DNA from: Candidatus Electronema halotolerans
GTDB taxonomy: Bacteria; Desulfobacterota; Desulfobulbia; Desulfobulbales; Desulfobulbaceae
Direction: 5' to 3'
Assembly: GCA_942493095.1 (NCBI GenBank)
Contig: OW818675.1
Span: forward strand, 420,001-452,000
Length of the DNA: 32,000 bases
In this document: one piece after another, positions 4,490-22,557 of the stretch
How the letters are laid out: each line of letters starts with the position of its first letter
How positions within the stretch are numbered: position 1 is the first letter of the stretch
The notes under the pieces: generated by a model
What the model was told of the DNA's origin: nothing
What the model saw: the letters and a program-made list of their open reading frames with translations, nothing else
The model's database searches: none
Position numbers and translations under genes: made by a program

Positions 4490-4517
4490 GTAGGGGCGGT
4501 TCATGAACCGCCCCTAC
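4490..4517. repeat. REP-like 28-nt perfect palindrome GTAGGGGCGGTTCATGAACCGCCCCTAC
   Basis: Perfect palindrome, intergenic. Preceded by a second 16-nt palindrome, gcacggcgcgccgtgc, at 4469-4484. Confidence 0.85.
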
Positions 4518-7488: not shown

Positions 7489-8529
7489 TCAGCTCTTCCG
7501 CTTCTCCCCAGTCAGGGCCGCCTGATCAAACCAGTTTGGAATCACGCCCGCTTTCCAGCAGGCCCGCGAGCTGGCAATCACTTTTCGCATCACGCCATTG
7601 ATGACCGCCCACAGTGCTTCGCTGCCGCCGAAATTGACCCCGCCATTGGTCCACAGCGTTTCCAGCATCAGCAGGAGCTGAAAAAAGTTCTGCTGGAGCG
7701 GCCCCTGCACTGGATGCAGAGGATCATCAACTCCACTATGCACTTCCGGCAATTCGCTCATCTTGAGTTTGAGAAAACGGCCAAAATGGGCATAGCCGTT
7801 GTATGGCTCAGGATCTTTCGGCTCGTGCATCAGCCGGTAATAAGGCGGCACTGGAAAACTTTTTTCCGTCCACGGCGGCGACTTGAGCATCTCGGTGAGG
7901 ATATGGCCCTCGCCTTGATTGGTCACAGCTTGGACCGCATTGCGGGCATCAGCATAGCTGGCAATGATCTGGGGGAAATTCTGCTCCGGCCAATGCGCCT
8001 GCTGATGCTGGGTGCTCCAGCGGAACTGCTCAGTGCCGACCTGCTTGATGCCCACCATCAGGCCGTCATACATCTCGCCGATGGAACTGTACGGATGCTG
8101 CGGCGTTCGATGATCCACGATCAGCCCTTCCGGGATTTCCTCCGGGTTTTCAATGTCCAGCATGGTGTTGAGCCGCTCGTCATCCAACGGCCCCAGCATG
8201 GCGTTGAGAAAGCCGCGCTCGCCGGTTTCCGGGTCATAAGGCTTGATGTAGGGCACATCCGCGCCATACTGCGGCGGCCTGAAGCCGGGCGGCGCATCCA
8301 AGGCGGCGCAGAGATTGGCGGCTAACTGTAGGTGCAGCATCTCCTCAATCACCACGCTGCGGATGATTGTGCAGGCCTCGCTCCTGCTGTCAATGACCGA
8401 GGTCATTGCCGTGATGTAGAGGGGCAGGGTGTATAATTCCACGGCGGCAGCGGCTTGGGCGTGCTCCTGCACAAGCGCCTTGGTCCAAACAGCGGCTGGT
8501 TCCGGTATCTCGGTCATGGCGGTTTGCAT
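7489..8529 (-). CDS. Ferritin-like domain protein (PF12902-type)
   Basis: VELYTLPLYITAM...VIEEMLHLQLAANLCAAL matches the ferritin-like family signature. Start taken at MQTAMTEI (ATG 8527-8529); ATG at 8517 is an alternative. Confidence 0.65.
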   Translation of the reverse strand: MQTAMTEIPEPAAVWTKALVQEHAQAAAAVELYTLPLYITAMTSVIDSRSEACTIIRSVVIEEMLHLQLAANLCAALDAPPGFRPPQYGADVPYIKPYDPETGERGFLNAMLGPLDDERLNTMLDIENPEEIPEGLIVDHRTPQHPYSSIGEMYDGLMVGIKQVGTEQFRWSTQHQQAHWPEQNFPQIIASYADARNAVQAVTNQGEGHILTEMLKSPPWTEKSFPVPPYYRLMHEPKDPEPYNGYAHFGRFLKLKMSELPEVHSGVDDPLHPVQGPLQQNFFQLLLMLETLWTNGGVNFGGSEALWAVINGVMRKVIASSRACWKAGVIPNWFDQAALTGEKRKS

Positions 8530-8778
8530 GGTTGAGGAAGAGATGATTGACGTTCCAGCGCGGAACGCTGCGGGGCAGTATATTTTTTTGCCAAGCAAAG
8601 GTCAAGTGAAAGTCTTTGAATATTGAACCGTTGCCCAAAACCTCTCCAGCAGCGGCCTTGCCATCCATCACGTTTCTTGACAGAGCTTGAACGCCAGAGT
8701 AAACGAATTGAAAAATCAATTCGTTTCTTCAAAATAAGGTGAAAATGGGCCGGACAAGGGGAGGTTTCCCAAAATGGC

Positions 8779-8808
8779 TTGACAACTGCCTGATTTTTCT
8801 GGTACGAA
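8779..8808 (+). promoter_or_regulatory. Leader-A sigma70-like promoter (TTGACA-18 nt-TACGAA), copy 1
   Basis: About 95 nt (8722-8818) are near-identical to the leader of array 2 (10944-11038). The -10 element ends 10 nt before the solo repeat. Confidence 0.5.
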
Positions 8809-8818
8809 AAGAGGAAGA

Positions 8819-8853
8819 GTCACAATGACACTCCGGGGCACCTTGGGTTAGAC
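8819..8853 (+). CRISPR. Solo degenerate CRISPR repeat (35 nt)
   Basis: GTCACAATGACACTCCGGGGCACCTTGGGTTAGAC versus the consensus: 2 substitutions and a 1-nt deletion. No second repeat follows. Confidence 0.8.
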
Positions 8854-8868
8854 CGCAGGCCGGAATCC

Positions 8869-8896
8869 GTAGGGGGAATTCATGAATTCCCCCTGC
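8869..8896. repeat. REP-like palindrome GTAGGGGGAATTCATGAATTCCCCCTGC
   Basis: Near-perfect 28-nt palindrome 15 nt after the solo repeat. The flank ggccggaatcc resembles the flank of the copy at 20003. Confidence 0.8.
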
Positions 8897-8931
8897 AATG
8901 TTTGGATATTTCATAAAAATGGCTTTCCGCC

Positions 8932-9768
8932 ATGAACATCCTCCCCTGCTTCCAGCCGCTGCTTGACCTCTCGTGGCAAACCTTGCGTATTGAGCTGCGC
9001 AACACCCGCAACATCTTTGCCCGCCAGCACCCGTTAGCCGTGTTCGCTGCGGTGTGCAAGGAGGCGGCCAGCAAGGCAGGTATTCCGCACCACGAGTATT
9101 TTTATCATCCCTTGTCCGGCCTGCTGGAAAGCCGCATCCGCAAAGATGCTGTCTATCCGCTGGAACTGGTTTTCTCCAGCAACGACAGCACAGTCCGCGA
9201 CCGCTTCCTCAGCGGCCTGACCGAGCACCTGCGTCATCCCCGCAGCAACTTTGCCCTGCATCAGGCAGAGCCATCCATCCGCCGCTGCCTTGCTGATCTG
9301 CTGGCGGAAAATCCCCTGCGCTGCCCGGACGAAGTCTGCTTGGATTTCATCACCCCGTTTCCGTTCACGCCAAAAGCACCGGGGCAGCTCTGCCTGATCG
9401 ACCGCGACCTCTTTTTCCGCAAGCTGGCAGCCCGCATTGAGCGGACGTTCGGCCTGCGGCTGCCGGGCATCGAAAGCACGTGGGCGGAAGTGCGCTTGCT
9501 CTGCTGCTATTGGAAATACTATGAACGTCAGCGGGATTCGGCCAGCAACAGGGGCAGGCTGTATCTGAACGGCACGGTCGGGCCGCTCTATCTGCGCGGC
9601 GAGATTGCGCCGGTCTATCCGCTCCTCCTGCTCTGCTCCGAGATCAGTAACGGAAGGCACAGTGCCTTTGGCTTAGGACATTACCTGCTGCGGCAGGAAC
9701 CCAGCCTGAAAAACCTCCGGCAAAATGGCCGTGAAAGAGGGGCTGGAAGGGGAGGTGCTACAAAATAG
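8932..9768 (+). CDS. cas6: CRISPR-associated endoribonuclease Cas6 (RAMP)
   Basis: 278 aa adjacent to the arrays. C-terminal glycine-rich loop SNGRHSAFGLGHYLL is typical of Cas6. Called from context plus this motif only. Confidence 0.7.
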   Translation: MNILPCFQPLLDLSWQTLRIELRNTRNIFARQHPLAVFAAVCKEAASKAGIPHHEYFYHPLSGLLESRIRKDAVYPLELVFSSNDSTVRDRFLSGLTEHLRHPRSNFALHQAEPSIRRCLADLLAENPLRCPDEVCLDFITPFPFTPKAPGQLCLIDRDLFFRKLAARIERTFGLRLPGIESTWAEVRLLCCYWKYYERQRDSASNRGRLYLNGTVGPLYLRGEIAPVYPLLLLCSEISNGRHSAFGLGHYLLRQEPSLKNLRQNGRERGAGRGGATK

Positions 9769-9770
9769 TA

Positions 9771-9800
9771 TTGACAGGAAGCTGAATTTACGGGTATAAA
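9771..9800 (+). promoter_or_regulatory. Leader-B sigma70-like promoter (TTGACA-18 nt-TATAAA)
   Basis: Near-consensus hexamers. The -10 element ends 10 nt upstream of repeat 1. The same roughly 51-nt leader recurs inverted at 20837-20887. Confidence 0.6.
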
Positions 9801-9810
9801 AAGAGGCAGA

Positions 9811-10119
9811 GTCACAATGACACTCCGGGGCGCCCTGGGTTATGACATACTATATGTGGCAAAGCCACTTTATAAGTCACAATGACACTCCGGGGTGCCC
9901 TGGGTTATGACTGTTATCTTCGGCAATTGATCCTGCAACTGAAAGTCACAATGACACTCCGGGGCGCCCTGGGTTATGACCAGATGCCCCATATAGCAGC
10001 CTTGTTTTTGTGTCACAATGACACTCCGGGGTGCCCTGGGTTATGACAATTGCATCACCAGAAAAACTACGTAGATTTGTAAAGTCACAATGACACTCCG
10101 GGGCGCCCTGGGTTATGAC
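9811..10119 (+). CRISPR. CRISPR array 1: 5 repeats, 4 spacers (29, 33, 31, 36 nt)
   Basis: Repeats at 9811, 9876, 9945, 10012 and 10084, all 36 nt: GTCACAATGACACTCCGGGGYGCCCTGGGTTATGAC. The Y polymorphism lies in the predicted hairpin loop. Confidence 0.95.
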
Positions 10120-10151
10120 TGTCTGATTTAACCCTTCACCATTTCAATCCT

Positions 10152-10167
10152 GTCACGCCACAATGAC
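10152..10167 (+). repeat. Truncated sixth repeat remnant GTCACGCCACAATGAC
   Basis: Lies 32 nt (one spacer length) after repeat 5 and matches the repeat 5' end GTCACAATGAC with a short insertion. Contains the ATG of the downstream antitoxin ORF. Confidence 0.45.
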
Positions 10168-10381
10168 TGTTGCGCAGTTATACAAGCGATATATCCAGCC
10201 GATATCAGCCGCTGATCAACTTGAGCTGATCGCCTTGATCAGCAGACAATTGATCAACCGGCCTGAACGGCAGCAGCGGAGCCTGCTGGAGTTGGAAGGA
10301 CTTGGGGCCGAAATATGGGAAGGTGTTGACCCGCAGCAATATGTTGATGCGCTGCGGAATGAATGGGAAAACCGCCTGTGA
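10163..10381 (+). CDS. VapB-type antitoxin (small, acidic C-terminus)
   Basis: 72 aa. LELEGLGAEIWEGVDPQQYVDALRNEWE is a pattern common in antitoxins paired with PIN toxins. Overlaps the downstream PIN gene. Confidence 0.6.
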   Translation: MTVAQLYKRYIQPISAADQLELIALISRQLINRPERQQRSLLELEGLGAEIWEGVDPQQYVDALRNEWENRL

Positions 10382-10824
10382 CAAGTCCTGAGTCTGCTTT
10401 CACAAAGATAACAGTGCTGGGAATTGACACGGCTCCGTTTATTTATTTTGTCGAACGGCATCCAGTTTATCTGCCGGTCATCCGGGATATTTTCAGGCGG
10501 ATTGATCAAGGATTCATGCGGGGCTGCGCTTCGGTGATCACGCTGACTGAAGTGCTTGTTCAGCCCAAGCGTTGCGGAAAAATCGCCTTGGAACGAGAAT
10601 ACCGCGATCTCCTGCTGTGCAGCAGAAATTTTGAACTTATCCCGATAGATGCGGCAATTGCCGAGCAGGCGGCGGAACTGCGGAGCCGCCATAACCTGCG
10701 AACGCCTGACGCGCTTCAGATTGCGGCCAGCCTTTCCGGTGGTTGCGAAGCATTTCTGACCAATGACAAGCAGCTCAAGCGCGTTGAGGACTTGGCAGTG
10801 CTGGTGCTGGATGATTTTGTATAA
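10363..10824 (+). CDS. PIN-domain VapC toxin
   Basis: GIDTAPFIYFVE (N-terminal Asp), TLTEVLV, and RTPDALQIAASL..AFLTNDKQL acidic-residue pattern of PIN domains. The start is ATG 10363 or GTG 10378 (GTGA overlap with the antitoxin stop). Confidence 0.7.
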   Translation: MGKPPVTSPESAFTKITVLGIDTAPFIYFVERHPVYLPVIRDIFRRIDQGFMRGCASVITLTEVLVQPKRCGKIALEREYRDLLLCSRNFELIPIDAAIAEQAAELRSRHNLRTPDALQIAASLSGGCEAFLTNDKQLKRVEDLAVLVLDDFV

Positions 10825-10998
10825 CAGACATGGACGAATGATGTCGGCTGCTTAAAAAATATATTATTTCGGACAGGTGCGAGTTATTGAATTATCATGC
10901 TGAATCTGCGTCGTTATTCGACAAAACCAACACAATGTAGTACCTTCGGCAAAATGAGGTGAAAATGGGTCAAACAAGGGGAGGTTTCCAAAAAACGC

Positions 10999-11028
10999 TT
11001 GACAACTATCTGGATTTACTGGTACGAA
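10999..11028 (+). promoter_or_regulatory. Leader-A sigma70-like promoter (TTGACA-18 nt-TACGAA), copy 2
   Basis: Same geometry as 8779-8808. The -10 element ends 10 nt before repeat 1 of array 2. Confidence 0.5.
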
Positions 11029-11038
11029 AAAAGGAAGA

Positions 11039-11212
11039 GTCACAATGACACTCCGGGGTGCCCTGGGTTATGACAATATATGATCACCTATCACATTACC
11101 GTGAGAGTCACAATGACACTCCGGGGTGCCCTGGGTTATGACTTGAGGTTTGCTGACAGTGAAACATTCATGTCTTGTCACAATGACACTCCGGGGTGCC
11201 CTGGGTTATGAC
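11039..11212 (+). CRISPR. CRISPR array 2: 3 repeats, 2 spacers (32, 34 nt)
   Basis: Repeats at 11039, 11107 and 11177, all the T variant of the consensus. Confidence 0.95.
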
Positions 11213-11214
11213 CG

Positions 11215-11242
11215 GTAGGGGCAAAAAATTTTTTGCCCCTAC
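11215..11242. repeat. REP-like perfect palindrome GTAGGGGCAAAAAATTTTTTGCCCCTAC
   Basis: Starts 2 nt after the last repeat of array 2. Confidence 0.85.
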
Positions 11243-11264
11243 GATTTTTCCGCGAAAAAAATTC

Positions 11265-11293
11265 TTGCAAAATCTGCATCATGTCGTTATATA
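11265..11293 (+). promoter_or_regulatory. Candidate promoter of the effector operon (TTGCAA-17 nt-TATATA)
   Basis: The -10 element ends 6 nt before the cmr1-like ATG (11300), so the mRNA would be leaderless or nearly so. No Shine-Dalgarno sequence is visible. Confidence 0.4.
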
Positions 11294-11299
11294 TCGGAC

Positions 11300-12328
11300 A
11301 TGACTCAGCTCCCCTACAGCATCTCTTCACGCACTCCCATCGTCACTGGTGACAACGACCACCGAAACACTGAACTGCAAGCCGCCGGACTGCTCGGCAG
11401 CCTGCGCTATCAATACTGGCTGCTCAAGGCCATGCAGGCGTGGGAGAAAAATCCGCAGCATCCTGTTTATCCGCCGTATTCCGCTGATCTTTCACCCGCA
11501 GGCAGCAAAAATTTCACAGAGGAACTGCGTAAGGCCGGGCCAGTCGTGCAGCTTTTTGGTGCCACGAACTGGAAAAAGATGTTCCGGCTGGAGATTGCCG
11601 AAGCGGTGCAAAGAGAGCAGCAGTCCTGCTCGGCCCGCGCAAATGACCGCATTGCTCCGTGGCAGTGGACGTTCAAACTCATTTTCCGCCACGACAGAAA
11701 CAGCCCGATTTTTAACAAGCTGGCGGACAAGGAAGGCTTCAGCTTGGCAGATGAGCTGCACAGCCTGATGGCTTTTGTGCATCAGTATGGCTGGCTGGGC
11801 GCGGCCCCGCAGAACGGGCTGGGCTGGGTAAAAGTGCAGAGCGAGGAACTTGGAACGGTCATCCTGCCGCAAGAAAATCCGGTCTTTGCGGCAAAGGATA
11901 TTCTGTTGAATAGAAAAGAATCAAAAAGACTGCAAGATACGCTGCGCGACTATTACCGCGACAAGTACAGCAATTTGGCCGCCCCGCATTGGAAACGGGG
12001 ACGATATCTGCACAGCTTAGAGCATCTGGACAAACAGTCTCCGCCAATCGGCTACGAAATCCGCCGCTGGCTGCGGGATCAGATGTTTCCGCCTGACCGA
12101 TATAAAAACAAGCAGGAGGAATATTTCGGCAACCAGAAACATGCCGGTTTTGTTCATGTCACGCATCCCGTTGTTCAGTCGGACGGCGGCTGGTTGCTCA
12201 GATTACGCTTTGCGGCCCGCCCGGATACGACTGGCGACACAACGCGGCTGTATCCCGATCATCTCGATATTGCGCCGCAGTTCTGGCTTGATTACTGCGA
12301 AAAACTTCTGAAAGCGAAAGATGACTAA
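11300..12328 (+). CDS. cmr1: Type III RAMP protein, Cmr1-like (Cas7 group)
   Basis: TPIVTGDND..AGLLGSLRYQYW, LFGATNWKKMFRLEI, and the G-rich loop GWLGAAPQNGLGWV. A second RAMP half has YFGNQKHAGFVHV. First gene in the III-C gene order. Confidence 0.6.
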   Translation: MTQLPYSISSRTPIVTGDNDHRNTELQAAGLLGSLRYQYWLLKAMQAWEKNPQHPVYPPYSADLSPAGSKNFTEELRKAGPVVQLFGATNWKKMFRLEIAEAVQREQQSCSARANDRIAPWQWTFKLIFRHDRNSPIFNKLADKEGFSLADELHSLMAFVHQYGWLGAAPQNGLGWVKVQSEELGTVILPQENPVFAAKDILLNRKESKRLQDTLRDYYRDKYSNLAAPHWKRGRYLHSLEHLDKQSPPIGYEIRRWLRDQMFPPDRYKNKQEEYFGNQKHAGFVHVTHPVVQSDGGWLLRLRFAARPDTTGDTTRLYPDHLDIAPQFWLDYCEKLLKAKDD

Positions 12329-13076
12329 ATTTCAGGCCGCTGCCCAAGACAAGCACCTTTGGCAGCCCGATTACGCCAGCCTGCCGCACAATCTGCCCAG
12401 CCTCCCTGACCCGGAAATCTCCGGCTGCTCCTTCCGCTTCTTCTGCACCTTCACCCTGCAAACTTGCTTCTTCTCAGGCCGCGACCGAGCGGGCGCAGAA
12501 AAAGAGGCTGGCAACGAGCATGATCACACGTTGAACAACCATCTCTGCCGGGACTGGGTTTCTGGTCATCCATTAGCCAAGGCCGGGGCGTGGAAGCGGC
12601 TTTTCCGTTCCTGCTGGCCGAAAGATAATGCCAAAGATATCGAACGTCTTTTCGGGCCGGAACCAAAACATCCCAACGAAGAGGAAAAACTGAGCAAGGC
12701 TGAGTTGAAATTTCATCACGCCGTTTTTCCTCTGAACAGCACCGGCAAAGCTCTGATTGCGCCGCGAGACCAGAAAACCGGCACGGTCAATCACGGCCCG
12801 ATCACCTATGAAGTGGTGAAGGCAGGCAGCCGCTGCGAGGTAGTGATTGATTATCTGCCGCGCCGCGCTTGCAATCCGGCAGCGGCGGAAAAGGTGCTCT
12901 GGAAGCTGTGGCGGGCCGCCTTGGAAGTTAAAACTCAAGGCGCGGCCATTGGCGGCAAGTCCGGCATTTGGGGGCGTGGCCGGTTTTATCTGACTGAAAT
13001 GTCTGTAATGCGCAGCCCTGACATGCCGCGCAGCAAGTCCAACGAGTCAATCAAAGACCGGAGTGCGGCCCGATGA
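12321..13076 (+). CDS. cmr6: Type III RAMP protein, Cmr6-like (Cas7 group)
   Basis: FTLQTCFFSG..GHPLAKAGAWKRLFRS, RLFG, KFHHAVF, and C-terminal IGGKSGIWGRGRF G-rich loop. 8-nt overlap with the upstream gene and ATGA overlap with cas10. Confidence 0.55.
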   Translation: MTKFQAAAQDKHLWQPDYASLPHNLPSLPDPEISGCSFRFFCTFTLQTCFFSGRDRAGAEKEAGNEHDHTLNNHLCRDWVSGHPLAKAGAWKRLFRSCWPKDNAKDIERLFGPEPKHPNEEEKLSKAELKFHHAVFPLNSTGKALIAPRDQKTGTVNHGPITYEVVKAGSRCEVVIDYLPRRACNPAAAEKVLWKLWRAALEVKTQGAAIGGKSGIWGRGRFYLTEMSVMRSPDMPRSKSNESIKDRSAAR

Positions 13077-13459
13077 GCGAAGCCCAAATCAGCGCGGCCT
13101 TGGAGCAGCACTGCCGCTTCCTCGCTTATGTGCGCGTGAATGCGTTGCTGCATGATGGAGACAAGGTCACGTCAGAGTTTCTGCGCTGGTCGATGGATAA
13201 AAAAAGCGTTCCGAAAGAAGAATATCCCGGACATGAAACATCTTCCCCGGAAGAACGGCTGAATTTTCTGGCAAGCAAGGAAGAGCTGTTCCCACGGCAT
13301 GAGCTGGAGCCAATTGCTGCCCCTGTGCGTCGGGTCGCCTTGGAACCTGACATGCTGCGGAAGGAACAGGCTGCCGACATATTGCAGCAATATATCGGGA
13401 ACGAAAATTTTATCAGCAAGTTGGCATCCTCTCAGCTAAAGAATCTGGAAGATAATTTT
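13073..13459 (+). pseudogene. cas10: cas10 (cmr2-like) 5' segment encoding the HD domain, interrupted by an IS
   Basis: HCRFLAYVRVNALLHDGDK resembles the Cas10 N-terminal H...HD motif. The reading frame runs into the IS end at 13460. Confidence 0.7.
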
Positions 13460-14641
13460 GGCGGTCTCCCTCTTGAGAGTTGTTGAATAATTGTTTATCC
13501 TTCTGTGTGTGTCAACTATTTTAAAGAAGGAGGAAAAGATGGCTAAACTTGCAAAAGTCGGCAGTTTTTGTCCGAACCCCGCCTGTTCTGATTATGAGCA
13601 GCTTGACGGTCGAATTATCAGATATGGCCGCACTCGTGCAGGCGTTCAGCGTTTTAAATGCCTGAGTTGCGGAAGAACGTTCACTGCGACGCGAGGGACG
13701 ATATTTTATCGCCGCCGGACGGAGGATGCTGAAATTGTTGAGTGTCTTGCCCTGCTTGCGGAAGGATCACGGATCAGCAGCGTGAGCCGGGTGAAAGGGC
13801 ACAAGGAAGACACAGTCGCCGCTTGGCTGACGGAAGCAGCCGAGCATGTTGAAGCTGTTGAAAATGTTCTTCTTTCCGAATTCCGCATCAGCCGGGGCCA
13901 GCTTGACGGCTTATGGTCTTATGTGAAGAATAAGGGCGAAAAAAAAGGACATGCGGAAACTGAGGCGAGCGGCCAGTTTTTCCGTTCGACGATGATGGAC
14001 ATGGACAGCCGCCTGCGTGCCGGGCGGGGATTCGGCAAATCGGAGACGGAAGCTTCCGCCGCCGTCTTCCGGCAGCTCAAGGAACGCGGGCATTCCGACG
14101 GCCCGCCGCCGACAGTTTCAGACGGCTGGGGCGGCATCCGGGAGGCGATGCTGGAAATTTTTGGAAAAGTTCCTGAATATTCCGGAAAAGGCAGACCTCC
14201 CTCGAAAAAGCGGCCTCAACCCGGATGGAAATATTTGCAAATCATCAAGCAGCGGGATGAGAAGGGGAATTTTCTCGGCACACGGCGCAAGGCGGTGCAT
14301 GGGAGCATGAGAGAACTTGATAAAATCTTTGGAAAAAGCACGGCCTATATTGAACGCAGCCATCTGACCATGCGGACTTTCAGCAGCCGCCTGACGCGGA
14401 AAGGCATCGCCTTCTCAAAGAGCATTGACATGCATAAAGCCGCCGCCGCACTGGAGGATATGTATTACAACTTCATCAAACCGCTGAAAACTTTGAGGCT
14501 GAATGCTGACGAAAACTCCGGGCTGAAATGGCTGCCGCGCACACCGGCAATGGCTGCGGGCTTGACGGACCATATTTGGACGCTGAAAGAGGTCTTCAGC
14601 ATGGTCGTGATTGAAAAACAACACTCAACAGGGTGACGACC
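13460..14641 (+). mobile_element. IS1-family insertion sequence (1182 bp)
   Basis: Imperfect terminal inverted repeats, 20/26 matches (GGCGGTCTCCCTCTTGAGAGTTGTTG versus the reverse complement GGTCGTCACCCTGTTGAGTGTTGTTT). Flanked by a perfect 8-bp direct repeat ATAATTTT at 13452-13459 and 14642-14649. Confidence 0.85.
13539..14636 (+). CDS. IS1-family DDE transposase (single ORF with N-terminal zinc finger)
   Basis: GGAGG RBS 7 nt upstream. CPNPAC..CLSCG zinc finger. LDGLWSYV, SDGWGGI and ERSHLTMRTFSSRLTRKGIAFSK match the IS1 DDE and C-terminal pattern. The stop lies inside the right IR. Confidence 0.75.
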   Translation: MAKLAKVGSFCPNPACSDYEQLDGRIIRYGRTRAGVQRFKCLSCGRTFTATRGTIFYRRRTEDAEIVECLALLAEGSRISSVSRVKGHKEDTVAAWLTEAAEHVEAVENVLLSEFRISRGQLDGLWSYVKNKGEKKGHAETEASGQFFRSTMMDMDSRLRAGRGFGKSETEASAAVFRQLKERGHSDGPPPTVSDGWGGIREAMLEIFGKVPEYSGKGRPPSKKRPQPGWKYLQIIKQRDEKGNFLGTRRKAVHGSMRELDKIFGKSTAYIERSHLTMRTFSSRLTRKGIAFSKSIDMHKAAAALEDMYYNFIKPLKTLRLNADENSGLKWLPRTPAMAAGLTDHIWTLKEVFSMVVIEKQHSTG

Positions 14642-14649
14642 ATAATTTT

Positions 14650-17295
14650 CAGCTCGACAAAAAAGGCCAACAGAAACGTAATTTTTTTGATCAGGACTAC
14701 ACGTCGATTTTTACAGAAGGGCTGTTCAGCAAGCTGACTGGTCAGCCTGTCCCAGCAGGTGTGGACTGGCTCTGTGAATTTCATCCCGGCACCTCTTTGT
14801 ATGATTTTTACGCTTGGCATCACCGGCCTACTTTTCACTTAAAAACGAAGAGTCATGTAGCAACATCCCTGCTTTTTTTCTCTGCCGGAACCGGAGGCAT
14901 TGATGGCAACGACACTGGTTATGAAACCGAAATGGAGGCTGGCCGTGAAAAATATTCCGGGCATCACACTCCTGACACTGCGCAGGACAATATTGTTCTG
15001 ATCAGTACGCCGTTTGGTTTCGAGCGGCCTGTTGATCTTGGCTGTGCTGAGACAGCTTGTCATTTGACAGAAGAAATACAAAATGTTGTTGCAGCTCTGC
15101 GGCAAAACAGCCAGCCCATGCAGGCGGCGGCAGAGCTTGAAAGAAAACTTGAGCAGCCTTTTCGCAACACGGTCATCCGCACCAAAAGACCGATCAATGA
15201 CATAACCCTTGCTGATCATTCCATTTCAACTGCTGCCTTGACAGTTGCCCAAGCAGCAAGGGCAGTGCTTGAAAACATCGCGGCCCCGGATGACACCGCT
15301 TACTGTCTGCCAGTCAGAAGACCGTGCAAAGATAGACCCAGCCAGCAAACTTGCTTTGCCGCCTTCAGTTGCGCAGTCAATGCGGACAAGCTCGACCAGA
15401 TGGCTTTGGAACTCAAAGACATCACCGCCATTCGGGACGAGGTGAACAAGCTGCTCAATTATTTTATCCTCTTGTTTTCTGAGGAATATCCGGTTGGCGG
15501 GAAGGTGTATCAAGATCAGCACGGCGCGCATGTCGTGGTGCCGGTGCTGGGTAATCCAGCCAAACGCTGGATTAAAGGCGGCGCAGACAAGCTGATCAGG
15601 CTTGAGGAGCAGACGCAGCAGCCTGAATGGGCGGACGCGCCGCTGGATGCCCTGACCGATGAGCAGTTTGTCGATTGGCTCTTTGCCACGGCAGAAAGAG
15701 AGTTACAGAAATTTCCGGTTTACTTTGGTGCGGAACTGCTGATCGGTCTGCGTTACAATCCGATTATGCAGCAATTGAACAGGCTGGCCCATGCGATTGA
15801 CTGGAGCCGGGAAATTTCTTGGTTCAGCAGGGCTGCCGGTCGTGCTCTGCGCAAAGGAGAAGGCGGGGGCTGCATTCGATTTTTCAACTATTTGGAAAGA
15901 GAAGTCACGCTCGACAAAAAAGATCAAGCAGAACCTGTTCCAGATTTGTGCGGAGTCTGCGGTCTGCGCATGGGCACTGACCGCAAGCACCGGAAATGCG
16001 ACATCTGCTTCAAACGGACTGATGATCATCGGGTGCTGCTGGAAGAAACCGGCGATATTGAAAAACTGGAACAGGCTTCCGGCGACAACCGGATGGTGCT
16101 GTTAAGCGTTTCTTTCAACCTTGCCGACTGGTTGGCAGAGAAATCCAATTCCGGGATTTTCTGTCACACGGCAAACAAGGCGAATAAGCTGAAGGAGCAG
16201 AAAACTGTCGAGCATCAACGCTTCAACAGCTTTGGCCGTTTCCGGCGTATTTGGCGGAGCACCGAGATTTTTCTGAATGAATTATGCGGCCAGATTCAGG
16301 AAATCAGCGGGCCGGGCGACGAAGACCGTTTCCTGATGCGCACTATCCTGCTTGCCCCGCAGGATTTGCAGATCATCCTGCCTGCGGCCAAAGCCCGCCA
16401 AGCTCTGGATGCGGTGTACGAAAAATTCAGCACGGAATTCGGCAGAGTCAGCGACCGGATGCCCTTTCATGTCTCCCTGTGCATCTTCCCGTTTCGAGTG
16501 CCGATCTACTTGGTGCTGGAAGCGGCCAGACGGCTGCGGCAGAGCTGCCTGAAAATTAAGCCAAAGCAGGTCTGGTTGCACAGAGCTGATCCAGAAGATG
16601 AGCATAGCAATCTGCTGCGCACGGACAGCCGCGCAGACTGCGACGACCGGGAGCGCAGCTTCACCTATTGCCTGCCCATGATCTGGACGCAGAACTATCA
16701 GCCGCCCAACATGCTGAACGGCAAGGATCAGTTTCACGCCAATATCCAAGTGAAGCAGGAAGAAGACGGTAACACGTCCTGGCAGTGGAAATTTGTCGGC
16801 GAGATAGGGCAGGGCGAAAAAAAAGGTGCAAAAGAGACCGTCCTGATGACCGACAACCGCTTGGCCATTGTCGAAATCAGCTCTGGTTTCAGCTTGGATG
16901 AACTGGCCCGGCCTTCGGAAGAGCTGGAGCCGAGCCGCTGCCACGACATCCCGCTCGGCTATTGGCCCTGCATCAAGGAGCTGATCAAGCTGGAATCGCG
17001 CCTGTCTGAAAAGCAGCAGCGCGGGCTGCGTTCCGTCTTGGCCATGCGGGAAAAACTCTGGCAGGAAAGCGACCTGCCCGGCGCAACAGCGGAGGAAAAG
17101 CAGAACTTTCTCCGGCAGAGCATCCGCCTGCTCTGGCAGGAACCTTCCCGCTTCGGGCCGACAAAATGGGGGAATTTGCATGATCACCAAAGAAATCTGC
17201 TGGAGGAAAGCTGTCTGAACGGGGCTGTCTTTCTCGCCTCAGCAGTGAAAAAACATTTGCAGCACAACGACGACAAGGAGCAGGATCATGGCTGA
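14650..17295 (+). pseudogene. cas10: cas10 (cmr2-like) 3' segment: D1/zinc finger/Palm2/D4
   Basis: RPINDITLADHSISTAAL (Cmr2-type), CGVCG-x13-CDIC treble clef, Palm-like strands RMVLLSVSFNLADWL and TILLAPQDLQIILP. In frame with 13073-13459 once the IS and one TSD copy are removed. Confidence 0.75.
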
Positions 17296-18295
17296 AGACC
17301 GGCGGATGCTCAAACTGTTCACCCTTGATCCGCTCCACATCGGCGTGGGCCAAGACATCATGGGCGAGGTTGACCTGCCTGTTGACCGGGAGAGTGAAAC
17401 CGGGGTGCCGCGCATTCCCGGCACGGCCCTGAAAGGCGGCTTCCGCGCTCATGCGGCATGGAAGCTGAAAATGGACGGCAAAAAGGACAAACCCTGTCCC
17501 GGTGATCAGCCGGAAGACGGCAAAACTGCGGCAGAGCGAACCCGTTCTGATTACTGCCCAATTGAATCTTGCCCGATCTGCCAGACCTTCGGTTTTCCAT
17601 CGCTGAACATTCAGGAAAAGCAGATTGCCGGACACGAGGGCCGGGTCTATTTCCGTGATGCCCGGCTGGCCTTTTTTCCAGCTCTGACCGACAAGGGCAC
17701 GCTCTGGTTTTCCACGCCGGGCCGGGCCGCAGCGTGGCTGGAGCTGAAAGGCTATGAACATCCTGAATTGCTTATGGCGGACGGCGACTTGGCCCTGTCA
17801 GTCAATCAGAAAGAGCCAATTCAGGATTTGCGGGTCGGCTGGATTGCTGTTTCCGGGATTGAGCAAAACAGCACGGAAGCGCAGGTGCAGCAGGTTGTTG
17901 AGGCTCTGCGGAACTCCACGCTGCAATTCCCGACTAAGAAATACTGGCAGCATATTGTCAGCAAAACCGTGCTGCTGGATGAAAAGCATTTTTACCGCTT
18001 GGTGGAAACCTGCTTGGAGCGGCGCACCTGCAACCGGGTGGATCAGGACACCGGCACTGTGGCGCAGGGCGCACTGTTCAGCTACGAAGCTCTGCCCCGC
18101 GCCAGTCTGCTGTGCAGCCGGATTTTTGCCGAGACATCGTTGCCCGGCACGATTGAGGGCGGCTATGATTCGCCGCTGGCGGTCTGCAAGCTGGCCAAGG
18201 AAGGCTTTGCCCGCATGGGCATTGGCGGGATGCAGACCAGAGGCTTAGGTTCGCTGCTGATTGAGCTGTCAAGCAGGGAGGTCGGCAATGGCTGA
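17288..18295 (+). CDS. cmr4: Cmr4-like Cas7 backbone RAMP
   Basis: LHIGVGQDIMGEVDLPVDRESETGVPRIPGTALKGGFR, CPICQTFG, RVYFRDA, TGTVAQGALFSYEALP, GIGGMQTRGLG. Confidence 0.8.
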   Translation: MAEDRRMLKLFTLDPLHIGVGQDIMGEVDLPVDRESETGVPRIPGTALKGGFRAHAAWKLKMDGKKDKPCPGDQPEDGKTAAERTRSDYCPIESCPICQTFGFPSLNIQEKQIAGHEGRVYFRDARLAFFPALTDKGTLWFSTPGRAAAWLELKGYEHPELLMADGDLALSVNQKEPIQDLRVGWIAVSGIEQNSTEAQVQQVVEALRNSTLQFPTKKYWQHIVSKTVLLDEKHFYRLVETCLERRTCNRVDQDTGTVAQGALFSYEALPRASLLCSRIFAETSLPGTIEGGYDSPLAVCKLAKEGFARMGIGGMQTRGLGSLLIELSSREVGNG

Positions 18296-18848
18296 ATTTG
18301 CGTATCAGGAACCGGCCCGGATGAAGTTGGGGCGGGAAATATATGACCGCTATTGCAGAGAAAACAAGCAGGGCAATGCCGTCTCTCTGCTCAGTGATGC
18401 CATGACCGTGCTGCGTCAGCTTGGCCCGGCAGGGCTGGATGTCTGGATTGACCTTGATGCAGCCAAACGCGGCTTTCTCCGTCATGCGTGGCAGGAGAAC
18501 GCGCCTGATGAAATGGCCGCCTCGCTCAAAGCGCGGCAAGAGGATGCGGACACGGCTTGGGCGGAGATTGAAGACCTGATGCAGGTGCTGCGCTGCGCCA
18601 AGTATTTACTCAGTGATGCCATGACTGTGCTGCGTCAGCTTGGCCCGGCAGGACTGGATGTCTGGATTGACCTGAAAGGAAAAGACGGTGAACGACAGTT
18701 CATCCGCAACGGGTTGGATGCGAAACTGTCCGACTCGCTCAAGTCACGGCAGCAGGACATGGACACAGCTTGGGCGAAGATTGAAAACCTGATGCAGGTG
18801 CTGCGCTGCGCCAAATATTACGCCAAGACCCAGGAAAAAGATGAGTGA
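18288..18848 (+). CDS. cmr5: Cmr5-like small subunit (Cas11) with internal tandem duplication
   Basis: Position between cmr4 and cmr3 and all-helical composition. The segment LLSDAMTVLRQLGPAGLDVWIDL...AW..IE.LMQVLRCAKY occurs twice (18387-18605 and 18606-18818). Start ATG at 18288 (ATGGCTGA overlap). Confidence 0.6.
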   Translation: MAEFAYQEPARMKLGREIYDRYCRENKQGNAVSLLSDAMTVLRQLGPAGLDVWIDLDAAKRGFLRHAWQENAPDEMAASLKARQEDADTAWAEIEDLMQVLRCAKYLLSDAMTVLRQLGPAGLDVWIDLKGKDGERQFIRNGLDAKLSDSLKSRQQDMDTAWAKIENLMQVLRCAKYYAKTQEKDE

Positions 18849-19683
18849 GCACTGGCAGCAAGTCAGCTTCCGGCTTTCCGGCAGCCTTTTTGTCGGCTCC
18901 GGCAAATGGGGCTTTGTCCTGCCCTGCCGACCCTACTTGCCGGGCTGGACGCTCTGGGGCGCGTTTGTTATCTTGCTGAAGAAAAGCGGACGCTGGTCGG
19001 GCTGTTATGGCGAAATCGGCCAGCGGCTAAATCAGAAATGCTGGCTTGGCCATCTTTTCTTGCAGCAGGAGGACGGCAGCCTGTATTTGCCTGCAATTGA
19101 TCCCAAGCAGGGCGGCAAAACTGTTTTTGACTGGCGCGACCGCAATAACCAAGTTGCTGCCGGGCTGCCGCCCACGCTCTTCCGGCACGGCACGGTGCGC
19201 AGCCGTGAGCAGGGCCAGGAGAGCTTGCACAGACTTTTTCTCACTGAGACTGTGCAGCCCCGGAAGTATCGGTTGACCGGCATTCTCCGCTGCGACAGCC
19301 CGCCGGATGAGCTGCTGCATCCGGGCGACGCGCTCCGGGTCGGCGGCAATCGGCAGGTGAGCGGGGCCGAGATTGTCTGCGAGACCGTGGCAAGCTGCTC
19401 TGAAGAAATGCGGCGGAAATTCCTCAGCTACCAGCACCTGCGCTGCAATCCGGCGGACAATGCCTCTGCCCTGAACGGCGAGCTGGAACGGATTGTCCTG
19501 CGCCGCACCCGGACTGAAAACGGTTCGCGTGCAGACAGCAATGGCCGTTCTGGTTTTGGCCAGCATCACGTTGACTGGGGCCTGCATCTTGCGCCGGGCT
19601 GGGATGGGCCGGAAGGACAGGCGTATCAGCCTGCCAAGGATAAGCAAAACAGTTTCCGGCATGGCACGGTGGAGAAGGTCTGA
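18841..19683 (+). CDS. cmr3: Cmr3-like Cas5-group RAMP
   Basis: YLPGWTLWGAF and LRVGGNRQVSGAE resemble Cmr3 motifs. Last gene in the III-C gene order. 8-nt overlap with cmr5. Confidence 0.5.
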   Translation: MSEHWQQVSFRLSGSLFVGSGKWGFVLPCRPYLPGWTLWGAFVILLKKSGRWSGCYGEIGQRLNQKCWLGHLFLQQEDGSLYLPAIDPKQGGKTVFDWRDRNNQVAAGLPPTLFRHGTVRSREQGQESLHRLFLTETVQPRKYRLTGILRCDSPPDELLHPGDALRVGGNRQVSGAEIVCETVASCSEEMRRKFLSYQHLRCNPADNASALNGELERIVLRRTRTENGSRADSNGRSGFGQHHVDWGLHLAPGWDGPEGQAYQPAKDKQNSFRHGTVEKV

Positions 19684-19841
19684 GCAGCGGTTTTGCGAAC
19701 CTGAAGCAGACAGAAAAATCCGGGAGGTTCGCGGAAAAGCTGAACTTGTTGAATTGCCGTCAAAATCTTGTTAAAGGCCGCTGCAAAAAGGGTGCAAAAA
19801 GATGAGAATCTTTCGCAATAAGCGAGGTTCGCAAAAACAGG

Positions 19842-19869
19842 TTGATTTCTCTCATCTCAACTGTATATT
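19842..19869 (+). promoter_or_regulatory. Leader-C sigma70-like promoter (TTGATT-16 nt-TATATT)
   Basis: The -10 element ends 11 nt before repeat 1 of array 3. The leader sequence is unrelated to leaders A and B. Confidence 0.45.
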
Positions 19870-19880
19870 ATACAGTAACT

Positions 19881-19987
19881 GTCACAATGACACTCCGGGG
19901 TGCCCTGGGTTGCGACAATTATATTTCCATTATCATCATATTCATATTGCCGTCACAATGACACTCCGGGGCGCCCTGGGTTATGAC
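19881..19987 (+). CRISPR. CRISPR array 3: 2 repeats, 1 spacer (35 nt)
   Basis: Repeats at 19881 (3' end GTTGCGAC variant) and 19952 (consensus). Confidence 0.9.
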
Positions 19988-20002
19988 GGCAGCCGGAAAT
20001 CC

Positions 20003-20030
20003 GTAGGGGCGATTCATGAATCGCCCCTAC
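20003..20030. repeat. REP-like perfect palindrome GTAGGGGCGATTCATGAATCGCCCCTAC
   Basis: 15 nt after the last repeat of array 3. The flanks are homologous to 8854-8925. Confidence 0.85.
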
Positions 20031-20115
20031 AATTTTTTGATATTTCGGTAAAAAAATAATCCTCTCTGGGGCCGCCCGGTATTTTCACGTCATTCCAGTG
20101 CGCGGCACGGGCAGG

Positions 20116-20176
20116 CACAGGGGCCTGCCCCTACAAATCCTGTGTTTTCTGTCCAATGACACTCCGGGATGCCCCG
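20116..20176 (+). repeat. Collapsed REP remnant (20116-20135) plus 3'-truncated degenerate CRISPR repeat (20151-20176)
   Basis: acaggggcctgcccctac is a shortened REP. gtccaatgacactccgggatgcccc matches the first roughly 25 nt of the repeat with 3 differences. Confidence 0.55.
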
Positions 20177-20190
20177 CTCTCCTTCCCGCC

Positions 20191-20290
20191 ACATCCTTCC
20201 CTGTTTCCAGCCTCTGCTGGACCTCTCGTAGCAGACTCTGCACCTTGAGCTGCGCAAACATCCGCAACACCTTTTCCCGTCAGCATCGTC
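20191..20290 (+). pseudogene. cas6: 5' fragment of a second cas6 copy
   Basis: acatccttccctgtttccagcctctgctggacctctcgtagcag aligns to cas6 8938-8985. The ATG is lost and TGG has become TAG at 20229-20231. Similarity ends near 20290. Confidence 0.65.
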
Positions 20291-20524
20291 CCCGACAGGC
20301 GCAACAGATGGCTGACAATCGCGGCCTTGAAAAAGAAAAACCGAAAATTTCTGAAGAGACATGAAATCTTGTCAATGATCTCACAGGCAAGGACTGGAGT
20401 CTTGAACAAGTAAGCGGCGGGCTGGCGGATGAAAAAAATTGCAGATATGTCATGAGCGCATTGCATCAGCAACATTGCCCGCGACAAGAAATAGGGAGGA
20501 GAACTACATTTACGCCATCATGCG

Positions 20525-20836
20525 GTCATAATAACCCAGGGCGCCCCGGAGTGTCATTGTGACCTTCTAATAATCCAGCTGAAGATTTGGTAAAAAGTCA
20601 TAACCCAGGGCGCCCCGGAGTGTCATTGTGACTATCATGACACGCACAGGAATGTTGTTCGCAGTATGTCATAACCCAGGGCACCCCGGAGTGTCATTGT
20701 GACAGAGATGTCTATCCAGAGCTTCGATTGTTTGTCATAACCCAGGGCGCCCCGGAGTGTCATTGTGACCTTGTAAAAGCCCGGAAGACAAAAAAGTTTT
20801 GTCATAACCCAGGGCGCCCCGGAGTGTCATTGTGAC
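20525..20836 (-). CRISPR. CRISPR array 4 (inverted): 5 repeats, 4 spacers (33, 35, 30, 31 nt)
   Basis: Reverse-complement repeats at 20525 (distal, with a 3-nt ATA insertion), 20597, 20668, 20734 and 20801. The leader-proximal end is on the right. Confidence 0.95.
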
Positions 20837-20846
20837 TCTGCCTCTT

Positions 20847-20876
20847 TTTATACCCGTAAATTCAGCTTCCTGTCAA
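20847..20876 (-). promoter_or_regulatory. Leader-B promoter, inverted copy (TTGACA-18 nt-TATAAA)
   Basis: Reverse complement of 20837-20887 matches 9760-9810 except for one base seen. Confidence 0.6.
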
Positions 20877-21090
20877 TACCATTTTGTAGTTGAACGCAGG
20901 GCTGCTGTCCGGCGAGGGCGTATTCCCCAAAAGCACAAATGCAAAAACAAGCGTTTTTATCTCGCAATAGATTGAAAATGATGCTATTTTCCTCTGACGG
21001 CAGATGCGCCGCCGTTGAATTGTTTGGATAAAAAGACAACATATTAAACAGGATACAGATTTCGTGTCCTGTCGGCAAGGAGAAAACAGC

Positions 21091-22557
21091 ATGGCCCAGA
21101 AAAAAAATAATTCCTTCAGTCTGACTTTGTTCGATATTTACAGGAAAGACCCGGACGGGCCGCTGCCGGAGCCGCCGACTTTTCTCTGGACAGACAGGGA
21201 CGGCGCAAGCTGGCAGATTCCCTTTCTTGAGCCGGATGAAACAGGCGGCAAGGCTGTGCAAAGCGCGCTGCACCGCCTGTACTGCCTTGCCGGACAGGTT
21301 TTCAAGGAAGATCAGGTTTTCAGAACTGCGCCGCAGAAGCTGCTGAACGAGCTGAACACAACATGGCAGGTCGGCCCTGATCTGCTGCCGGTCTGCTTTC
21401 CCCGCGCAGGCGGCTTCTGCTTGGAAAAGGAATACCTGCTCCTGTATCTGGAAGTGCAGCCAGTCATGCCGGAAATCAATGCGGAATGCCTGTCCCGGCT
21501 GGCGGTCATGCTGACCAACAAGCTCTGCTATCGGGAAAAACAGGTCGCAACACTTCAAAGAGAATTCAAAGCGCATCAGGAAGGCAGTCCGGGCCGCAGC
21601 GAACAGGAGATTGTCCAAGCCCATTTTCAGGGCAATGATGCCAAGCTGATCAAGGGCATCACCGGTGAAGCGATCACGGTCAGGGAAATCTTTGCCGACT
21701 TGGCCGGGCCGGGCTGGGAATCCATGCTTCTTGACCGCTTCCTCCTCAAATCCCTGCTCATCACCCCATCAGAAGATGCGGCCCCTTCATACAGCCGTGC
21801 TGATGAGGAAAACCTGCTGCGGCTGACCAGAGGCATGAATGAGAACTATCTGCCCGCGTCGCTGGAGGCTTTGGCCGGGCATGTCGTGCCAGTGCAGACC
21901 TTTGCCAATGTCCGCTTCTTCGCTGCCAACGAAGGGATTGCCGCGCATGTCAAGCCAGGGCCGGGGCCGGGACAGGATTTTCTTTGCACAGAGTTTTCCA
22001 GCCGAACGCATTCCGAATACATGCTCCTCTTTGTGCTGGCCGTGTATCAGCATTACCGGCTGATTGATCTGATCCGGGAGCTGGCTCGCTGCACAGCAGA
22101 CCTGAACGAGCATAGTTTGGACAGCCGCCGGATTGAACAGCTCCGCCAGCTTCGGCAGAAATTGGCTGTTCATGAGGTGAAATACATCAACACCCAGCCC
22201 GCCTTTCTGACCAATTATCAGCAATATTACAGCGGCCTGCGCCAAGGGCTGAATACCGGCGCACTGGCGGAAAAGCTGCGCCGCTCTGTGGCTGAATTAG
22301 ACGCGCTCTTGGCTGCCGAAGAAATGCGCCGGGCCGAGGAGGACCTTCGGGACCGGAAAGAGCAGAAAGAACGGGATGAAAAGGGCAAAATGCTCATGGC
22401 TGTCACCGCAGAGGCAGTGGCTCTGCCTTATTATCTGCACAGTCTGTTGGCCCATGCTCTGCATTTCAACAATTATGTGGCATTGGCCATAACAGGCATT
22501 GTCACCGTCGGCGTGGTGACAAAAACTGTGCTCACCATGCGCGGCAAAAAGTCCTGA
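21091..22557 (+). CDS. Hypothetical protein, 488 aa, coiled-coil plus C-terminal TM hairpin
   Basis: AAGGAG RBS 8 nt before the ATG at 21091. No family recognised by eye. Charged helix AEEMRRAEEDLRDRKEQKERDEKGK is followed by two hydrophobic segments and a basic tail (MRGKKS). Confidence 0.6.
   Translation: MAQKKNNSFSLTLFDIYRKDPDGPLPEPPTFLWTDRDGASWQIPFLEPDETGGKAVQSALHRLYCLAGQVFKEDQVFRTAPQKLLNELNTTWQVGPDLLPVCFPRAGGFCLEKEYLLLYLEVQPVMPEINAECLSRLAVMLTNKLCYREKQVATLQREFKAHQEGSPGRSEQEIVQAHFQGNDAKLIKGITGEAITVREIFADLAGPGWESMLLDRFLLKSLLITPSEDAAPSYSRADEENLLRLTRGMNENYLPASLEALAGHVVPVQTFANVRFFAANEGIAAHVKPGPGPGQDFLCTEFSSRTHSEYMLLFVLAVYQHYRLIDLIRELARCTADLNEHSLDSRRIEQLRQLRQKLAVHEVKYINTQPAFLTNYQQYYSGLRQGLNTGALAEKLRRSVAELDALLAAEEMRRAEEDLRDRKEQKERDEKGKMLMAVTAEAVALPYYLHSLLAHALHFNNYVALAITGIVTVGVVTKTVLTMRGKKS

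Follow-up and report, generated by a model that had tools for sequence, protein, structure and literature searches.

The window analysed here, a stretch of 32,000 nucleotides (nt) from the closed 3.2-Mb genome of the cable bacterium Candidatus Electronema halotolerans (contig OW818675.1, positions 420,001 to 452,000), contains a subtype III-C CRISPR-Cas locus (short palindromic repeats, clustered and regularly interspaced, with their associated genes) with the gene order cmr1-cmr6-cas10c/csx11-cmr4-cmr5-cmr3. This locus is decaying: the reverse transcriptase-Cas1 part (RT-Cas1) of its adaptation module and cas2 have been deleted, cas6 now forms a fusion with the leader that follows it, an insertion sequence (IS) divides cas10c, and the leaders are truncated at their 5' ends. 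The decay is recent, as the repeats are still near-identical and the remaining effector genes keep intact reading frames. In a locus of this kind, deprived of RT-Cas1 and cas2 and with a split cas10c, the arrays would stand as frozen records, local spacer acquisition would be gone, and interference would probably be impaired, while the arrays are probably transcribed to this day and possibly still processed into CRISPR RNAs (crRNAs). Altogether, we give a probability of about 75% to the reading of a decaying III-C locus whose short, leader-bearing arrays are usual for its lineage, with arrays frozen, acquisition lost and interference probably impaired. Ten proteins, nine encoded in the locus and the tenth the neighbouring RecC, have exact matches in E. 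halotolerans. The genome was assembled from Nanopore and Illumina metagenomes (PMC10030654); the word CRISPR is absent from the paper that describes it, and its annotation labels every cas gene of the locus as "hypothetical protein".

The subtype assignment comes from profile matches to the effector genes. PADLOC gave matches to all four of Cmr1, Cmr6, Cmr4 and Cmr3, in agreement with an earlier reading of this DNA from its letters (hereafter the original prediction), which had named Cmr3 as the last effector gene, and it placed Cas10c in subtype III-C with an E value of 2e-48; the Csx11 profile TIGR02682 scored 119 bits, below its curated cutoff of 249. The closest solved structures to Cmr4 are III-B Cmr4 proteins, and sequence searches of the PDB returned no match for Cas10c, either alone or as a profile, nor for the Cas6 protein of the window. 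At the position of the GGDD motif a PQD tripeptide is invariant in 10 homologues, as is the N-terminal HD motif LLHDxDK (H27, D28, D30, K31), and Csx11 was described as an inactivated subfamily of Cas10 (Makarova 2011, PMC3150331). The order of the effector genes matches that of the relatives, and the pair cmr1-cmr6 is syntenic in L011, L013 and L014. The open reading frame (ORF) of small-subunit size at 18288-18848 matched no profile and is taken as the small subunit by its position, since relatives have homologues of 113-117 amino acids (aa) at the same place. This cmr5-like gene harbours a tandem duplication of about 216 nt (18390-18819; 18390-18454 against 18609-18673, 97% identical, and 18511-18606 against 18724-18819, 84%), and its product is therefore 186 aa long instead of the 113-117 aa of the relatives.

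An IS1-family element splits cas10c after codon 129 and parts the HD nuclease domain from the remainder of the protein. This follows from the restoration of the frame in silico, where removal of the element and of one copy of its target duplication joins a 137-aa ORF (13073-13486) and the csx11 ORF into a protein of 1010 aa, and from homologues of 990-1020 aa in other cable bacteria, which cover 98-100% of that protein, the N-terminal HD region included. The effector module that the original prediction saw bracketed by arrays is thus not intact, because its cas10c is interrupted. The ends of the element (13460 and 14641) were set by alignment with other copies, and it carries what is expected of the IS1 family: inverted repeats of roughly 25 bp at its two ends (GGCGGTCTCCCTCTTGAGAGTTGTT at one, the complement of GGTCGTCACCCTGTTGAGTGTTGTT at the other), an 8-bp target duplication (ATAATTTT, at 13452-13459 and 14642-14649), a Zn-finger/DDE transposase with an A-run frameshift site, and several more copies in the E. 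halotolerans genome. Its right junction was recovered in an independent (Logan) assembly, and a second (Logan) source likewise contains the truncated 137-aa product that the left junction creates.

Some further observations concern the same genes. The tight gene spacing had prompted the idea of a domesticated transposase, which was ruled out by the inverted repeats, the target duplication and the further genomic copies. In the IS copy of the window the A run has eight bases (13938-13945) against nine in three other copies, so that InsA and InsB form one ORF here (365 aa; the IS1-like ORF inside the operon has 381 codons) and two ORFs (151 and 214 aa) elsewhere. Compared with the Logan assembly L006, the window shows three single-base homopolymer differences (14873, 15916 and 18835); L006 has a frameshift in cas10c and a fusion of cmr5 with cmr3, and these differences are probably sequencing errors in either the window or L006. 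The 464-aa fusion of the Logan assembly, which differs from the window by one homopolymer base, suggested that cmr5 and cmr3 are a single gene broken by a frameshift, a candidate ruled out by the two separate genes of the relatives.

The loss of the adaptation genes is the second part of the argument. As the original prediction had noted, neither cas1 nor cas2 is present in the window: with the Cas2 and Cas6-RT-Cas1 proteins of relatives as tblastn queries, the Cas6 domain was the only match, there is no RT either, and an RT-associated adaptation module (Cas1 or RT-Cas1 plus Cas2) was not found in the window. Candidatus Electrothrix aestuarii and a more distant relative have a like effector together with cas2 and a Cas6-RT-Cas1 fusion of 878-880 aa, and the Desulfobulbaceae metagenome-assembled genome (MAG) S24.Bin023 has cas2 and then a cas6...cas1 reading frame equal in size to Cas6-RT-Cas1. 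The Cas6 of the window is 73% identical to residues 4-254 of the E. aestuarii fusion, including the C-terminal glycine-rich loop, and beyond the equivalent of residue 254 the gene runs into leader sequence, from which its final 19 or so codons are read. The lack of cas1 and RT comes from a deletion inside the Cas6-RT-Cas1 gene, and cas2 has gone as well. Counted along the leader, such a junction between cas6 and leader falls at about -100 in the window, about -62 in L017 and Electrothrix YB6, and about -160 in L018 (the junction-bearing cas6 genes are at 8932-9768 of the window, 1290-2129 of L017, 1860-2720 of L018 and 2042-2191 of L005). Since these are three different junctions in different genomes, the comparison indicates that RT-Cas1 was probably deleted independently at least three times in cable bacteria. 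Other cable bacteria encode Cas6-RT proteins without Cas1 (P0069 and P0102). A search with the RT-Cas1 part of a relative's protein gave no match named E. halotolerans among the best 120, most of which are nameless, so that this result is not evidence of absence.

Four arrays were recovered by repeat search at the coordinates and on the strands that had been predicted, and they are supported as genuine CRISPR arrays read on those strands. They comprise 15 repeats of 36 nt (GTCACAATGACACTCCGGGGYGCCCTGGGTTATGAC; 0-3 mismatches, and one repeat, the leader-distal one of array 4, with a 3-nt insertion) and 11 unique spacers, all of them within the 29-36 nt originally given. The leader side, the degenerate distal repeats, the terminators on the + strand and the geometry of the repeat hairpin all agree on the orientation. 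As expected of a CRISPR array, one side is flanked by an AT-rich leader and the opposite end has degenerate repeats; variant repeats are leader-distal in array 4 and in arrays II and III of E. aestuarii (the latter end in GTTATATA), the exception being array 3, where the variant repeat is the leader-proximal one. The original prediction had missed the IS element inside cas10, a fifth unit made of leader A and a solo repeat (8819-8854), and repeat and cas6 remnants in 20151-20312. Leader C, array 3, its terminator and these remnants together are a diverged paralogue of 8722-9002, and the unit of leader A1 and solo degenerate repeat also occurs in two Logan contigs. Rfam matched neither CRISPR-DR nor any other family in 8000-22000. 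Inside the second cas6 remnant (cas6'), 49 nt (20285-20333) match, at 94% identity, the sequence flanking an IS copy of the metagenome contig L008 (17-65), which hints that IS elements were active at this end of the locus too.

An array duplicated or split through misassembly of a metagenome-derived genome could in principle produce such a set of units. The genome does come from a Nanopore metagenome assembly (PMC10030654) and shows the three homopolymer differences from another assembly, but all 11 spacers and all flanks are unique, independent short-read contigs recover 14195-19908 and the region up to leader B, and a like architecture is seen in five other sources, all of which leaves the chance of an artefact vanishingly small.

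The leaders were compared by aligning the 330 nt upstream of 19 first repeats from six sources. Within the window, the reported duplications of leader A (8725-8850 against 10945-11070, 86% identical) and, in inverted orientation, of leader B (9758-9847 against 20800-20889, 99% identical) held up. The proposed division into three leader types did not, as A and B, and probably also C, belong to one family whose copies have diverged and lost 5' sequence. The alignment of the 19 copies points to a single leader of at least 320 nt, of which leader B represents the canonical form and leader A a diverged one, and to which leader C, barely alignable, gives a weak alignment; all leaders in the window are 5'-truncated. 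The junction between leader and repeat (AAARAGGCAGA/GTCAC) is nearly invariant in the 19 copies, the -35 hexamer TTGACA is retained in 17 of them, and the -10 hexamer varies among TATAAA, TACAAA, TACGAA and TACTAA. The promoters of the original prediction stand as motifs (TTGACA-18-TATAAA, TTGACA-18-TACGAA and TTGATT-16-TATATT, ending 10-11 nt before repeat 1), but the -10 elements of leaders A and B are without the conserved final T, and a generic sigma-70 scan reported leader C only. The pattern TTGACA-N18-TAYRAA occurs four times in the window and in none of 100 shuffles. A promoter beside repeat 1 is plausible because the -35 hexamer is kept in almost every copy, and the arrays are plausibly self-promoted from these predicted promoters; every leader copy would then bear a promoter of the form TTGACA-18-TAYNAA, with transcription starting 2-4 nt before repeat 1. 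Another near-consensus promoter, TTGCAA-17-TATATA at 11265-11293, ends just 6 nt upstream of the ATG of cmr1 (11300), so that the effector mRNA would have almost no leader unless cmr1 in truth starts further downstream.

Table 1. Features of the CRISPR-Cas locus, in order of position in the window.
Feature	Position	Strand	Description
Leader A1	8722-8818	+	About 97 nt, 5'-truncated; putative -35 TTGACA 8779-8784, -10 TACGAA 8803-8808
Solo degenerate repeat	8819-8854	+	5 mismatches; stem and 3' handle altered
Palindromic terminator-like hairpin	8869-8896	+	GTAGGGGG...CCCCCTGC; paralogous to 20003-20030
cas6-delta	8932-9768	+	Stand-alone Cas6 domain, 278 aa; Pfam and PADLOC Cas6 matches
Leader B1	9713-9810	+	About 98-100 nt kept; putative -35 9771-9776, -10 TATAAA 9795-9800; overlaps cas6 3' end
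Array 1	9811-10119	+	5 repeats; spacers of 29/33/31/36 nt, all unique
Possible 5' fragment of a further repeat	10152-10167	+	GTCAC-GCCAC-AATGAC; 9-nt exact repeat match, weak evidence
vapBC-like cassette	10163-10824	+	Antitoxin 10163-10381, PIN toxin 10363-10824; Pfam PIN, NCBI product names
Leader A2	10878-11038	+	About 160 nt, longest in the window; putative -35 10999-11004, -10 TACGAA 11023-11028
Array 2	11039-11212	+	3 repeats; spacers of 32/34 nt
Strong intrinsic terminator	11215-11242	+	12-bp stem, then T run
cmr1	11300-12328	+	NCBIfam and PADLOC Cmr1
cmr6	12321-13076	+	NCBIfam and PADLOC Cmr6
cas10c/csx11 5' fragment	13073-13459	+	129 codons; HD motif LLHDGDK
IS1-family element	13460-14641	+	1182 bp; NCBIfam and Pfam IS1 matches
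cas10c/csx11 3' fragment	14650-17295	+	881 codons; cyclase GGDD replaced by PQD
cmr4	17288-18295	+	PADLOC; NCBIfam 105 bits against a cutoff of 87
cmr5-like small subunit	18288-18848	+	By position; internal tandem duplication
cmr3	18841-19683	+	PADLOC Cmr3
Leader C	19790-19880	+	Strongly diverged; putative -35 TTGATT 19842-19847, -10 TATATT 19864-19869
Array 3	19881-19987	+	2 repeats; spacer of 35 nt; first repeat ends GTTGCGAC
Strong terminator hairpin	20003-20030	+	Terminator scan
Second-unit remnants	20151-20312	+	Repeat fragment about 20151-20174; cas6 5' fragment 20187-20312 (tblastn)
Array 4	20525-20836	-	5 repeats; spacers of 31/30/35/33 nt from the leader, all unique
Leader B4	20837-20889	-	About 53 nt kept; putative -35 20876-20871, -10 20852-20847

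Several points weigh against a decaying locus with frozen, self-promoted arrays. Conservation of the repeats is nearly perfect and the spacers seem foreign (GC content of 23-45%), which fits a recent or continuing function; the IS in cas10c could be polymorphic within the natural population, and other parts of the 3.2-Mb genome may hold a cas1-cas2 pair or a second cas10. As for the leaders, the -10 hexamers of A and B miss the usual final T and are not picked up by the generic scan, and the entire proximal leader is conserved, which could equally reflect recognition by the integrase and does not single out a promoter. Spacer targets belong here as well. The comparison of the spacers with viral and plasmid databases that had been proposed earlier was run and gave no significant targets: the 11 concatenated spacers found only chance-level matches in phage and plasmid collections (E >= 0.8), and the 24-nt cores of four spacers had no exact match in IMG/VR. 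The GC content of the spacers, compared with about 55% for the genome, suggests their foreign origin.

The layout of the locus is typical of the cable-bacterium lineage and no new device, because in relatives, too, there is more than one array and every array has a copy of one leader to itself. The repeat was found in three further genomes and two metagenome contigs, and a metagenome scan for the leader-repeat junction returned two contigs only. Against the five leader-array units of the window (the solo repeat and arrays 1 to 4), E. aestuarii has three, with 4, 7 and 18 repeats; the MAG has five, separated by RelB/MNT-HEPN, ParE, PIN, Uma2 and BrnTA cassettes; L017 and L018 have two each; and Electrothrix YB6 has four, scattered over 0.8 Mb. 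The spacers of different genomes share nothing and make up completely distinct sets. In this lineage, CRISPR memory is spread over several short arrays and not gathered in a single long one, every array is headed by its own copy of the conserved leader, and small cassettes, toxin-antitoxin or other, often lodge between them. The locus is a clear example of decay, with an IS in cas10 and RT-Cas1 lost while Cas6 is kept, and the lineage offers two patterns for comparative study: several arrays per locus, each with a copy of a long leader and interleaved with toxin-antitoxin cassettes, and the conversion of Cas6-RT-Cas1 into a stand-alone Cas6 by what appear to be at least three independent deletions.

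The gene order cmr1-cmr6-cas10-cmr4-cmr5-cmr3 is like that of the III-C prototype. With the MTH326-like systems of this subtype the locus shares the Cas10c/Csx11, Cmr1, Cmr6, Cmr4 and Cmr3 profiles, the replacement of GGDD by PQD and the retention of HD, and it differs from them in the IS that interrupts cas10c and in an internally duplicated small subunit without a match to hidden Markov models. A second comparison is with type III systems that carry RT-Cas1, such as those of Marinomonas mediterranea (III-B), Thiomicrospira (Cas6-RT-Cas1-Cas2) and Vibrio vulnificus (III-D). Like them, the relatives of the window encode cas2 and Cas6-RT-Cas1, here beside leader-bearing arrays, the repeats are alike in length (35-36 nt), and the spacers are likewise without identifiable targets, whereas the window retains only the Cas6 domain and its effector is III-C. 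The spacer repertoires of RT-associated systems are reportedly called enigmatic in the title of Silas et al. 2017. In loci inactivated by IS elements and in orphan arrays we find the same combination of an IS in an essential effector gene, lost adaptation genes and arrays kept; the decay here is recent, with near-identical repeats and intact frames in the other effector genes. Finally, Shmakov et al. 2023 (PMC10120712) described the mini-arrays of type III systems as usually leaderless and without conserved positions, and took them for degraded repeats. The units of the window resemble them in being short, in lying in or beside the cas operon and in their toxin-antitoxin cargo, but each comes with a copy of the leader, with repeats of canonical sequence and with unique spacers, and relatives show the layout again.

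Those mini-arrays lead to the idea that the solo repeat and the arrays with one or two spacers make regulatory, CreA-like RNAs that tune cas or toxin-antitoxin genes. Elements of this sort have been described (Shmakov et al. 2023, PMC10120712), the locus has toxin-antitoxin genes embedded in it, and a leader-equipped solo or short unit stands upstream of the cas2/cas6 operon in four sources (a leader with a short array or solo repeat precedes cas2/cas6 in L011, L004 and L018). Nevertheless, no spacer has a match of at least 14 nt beyond chance elsewhere in the window or in the loci of the relatives, the spacers are wholly different between genomes, type III effectors require extensive RNA pairing, and the same survey reported no conserved or targeted mini-arrays in type III systems, so that we hold a regulatory role to be highly improbable.

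The toxin-antitoxin genes themselves allow another reading. The vapBC cassette lies between arrays 1 and 2, vapB beginning 44 nt after array 1 with a start codon that is the ATG within the repeat-like fragment 10152-10167. A terminator scan found none between array 1 and vapB, nor before 11215-11242 (after array 2), and because no terminator parts array 1 from vapBC or array 2, the three may form one transcript ending at 11215-11242. It is conceivable, if rather unlikely, that the leader promoters serve as expression platforms in this way, with cassettes transcribed together with the pre-crRNA, freed by Cas6 and stabilising the locus. In at least six units (array 1-vapB of the window; arrays a, b, d and e of the MAG; L003 and L005b of YB6) a cassette follows the last repeat by 18-46 nt on the same strand and without a terminator, arrays ahead of cas operons do carry terminators, the PIN and Uma2 cassettes of the MAG are flanked by partial repeats, and a 9-nt repeat-like fragment overlaps the start codon of vapB. 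On the other hand, at least one of the cassettes, BrnTA, comes with a near-consensus promoter of its own, vapB is without a clear ribosome-binding site, and defence islands commonly hold toxin-antitoxin genes anyway. In its wider form, which we consider equally doubtful, the leader of cable bacteria would be a reusable promoter module, the interleaved cassettes would travel in the pre-crRNA, be freed by Cas6 and thereby resist loss, and RT-Cas1 would be excised repeatedly so as to leave a working Cas6. Should the cassettes indeed be transcribed from leader promoters, this would be a new coupling of addiction modules to CRISPR arrays.

A different question is raised by the orientation of array 4. 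In the original prediction, arrays 1 and 4 formed inverted repeats of about 360 bp, but all 11 spacers differ, and the continuous inverted homology is therefore limited to 90 bp (leader and repeat 1), beyond which the two arrays share only the 36-bp repeats at unequal spacing. Leader B4 adjoins, and diverges from, a gene for a 497-aa protein (21064-22557), and this gene adjoins a leader-array unit divergently in the window, in YB6 and in the MAG. The entire CRISPR-Cas locus of the MAG runs in the same direction as the array beside this gene, whereas the body of the window's locus (about 8722-20312) points opposite to array 4. Array 4 thus keeps an ancestral position, the rest of the locus having been inverted relative to it at some past time. 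A single inversion of about 8700-20312 explains the orientation with respect to the MAG but not the extra unit of leader C, array 3 and cas6'. The 497-aa protein has no family assignment, its homologues are in the MAG (L004, 26-925) and YB6 (L003, 22-2190), and the one of YB6 appears interrupted.

That the inverted copies of leader B with arrays 1 and 4 still flip the 11-kb segment from vapBC to cmr3, in a kind of phase variation, is nonetheless improbable. The 99% identical, 90-bp inverted repeat and the additional 36-bp repeats could serve such a switch, the body of the locus is inverted with respect to the MAG arrangement, and leaders B1 and B4 share derived bases without counterpart in the relatives, which suggests gene conversion or recent exchange. 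Yet the homology is short and broken by unique spacers, no site-specific recombinase family was detected among the roughly 30 larger ORFs of the window that were scanned, so that a dedicated recombinase is missing from that set, and the segment has its own promoters and terminators, so that flipping would have no obvious regulatory effect. Moreover, the breakpoints deduced by comparison (about 8700 and 20313-20524) fall outside the leader B copies, and no isoforms could be seen, since the short-read contigs break at leader B (the reference junctions run from cas6 through leader B to spacer ATACTATATG... and from the 497-aa gene through leader B to spacer AAAACTTTTT...). A past rearrangement within a decaying locus remains our preferred reading.

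The repeat itself contains a predicted site for crRNA processing. The hairpin CCGGG-GYGC-CCUGG of the original prediction, with its 8-nt 3' tail, is found in the centroid structure, but in the minimum-free-energy structure a further U-G pair shortens the tail to 7 nt. The predicted stem has 5-6 bp, the folding energy does not improve on that of shuffled sequences (z of -0.4 to -0.9), and the hairpin ends 8 nt before the 3' end of the repeat only in the orientation adopted here. The stem is unvarying across genomes, differences falling all in the loop at positions 20, 21 and 23, and there is therefore no covariation. Cleavage by the Cas6 domain would fall at the 3' base of this CCGGG/CCUGG hairpin, with GUUAUGAC remaining as the 8-nt tag. 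Repeat variants of the relatives (L011, 2340-8040, and L017) differ only in the loop (GGGACGTCC) or, as in the array of L017 with 14 repeats, in the 5' mini-hairpin (GTCACACCGAC), and the two arrays of contig L017 use different variants.

Strong terminators on the + strand follow the solo repeat, array 2 and array 3. They belong to a palindrome family (GTAGGGGC-N10-GCCCCTAC) with members at 4490-4517, 8869-8896, 11215-11242, 20003-20030 and 26019-26046, and since those at 4490 and 26019 lie in unrelated intergenic regions, the family looks like a general element of the genome, similar to the repetitive extragenic palindromic (REP) type. In the surroundings of the locus, the 3' end of recD (22-387) and a complete recC (22580-25774) lie on the same strand 22 kb apart, and the gap between them is filled by the CRISPR locus and genes of sugar metabolism.

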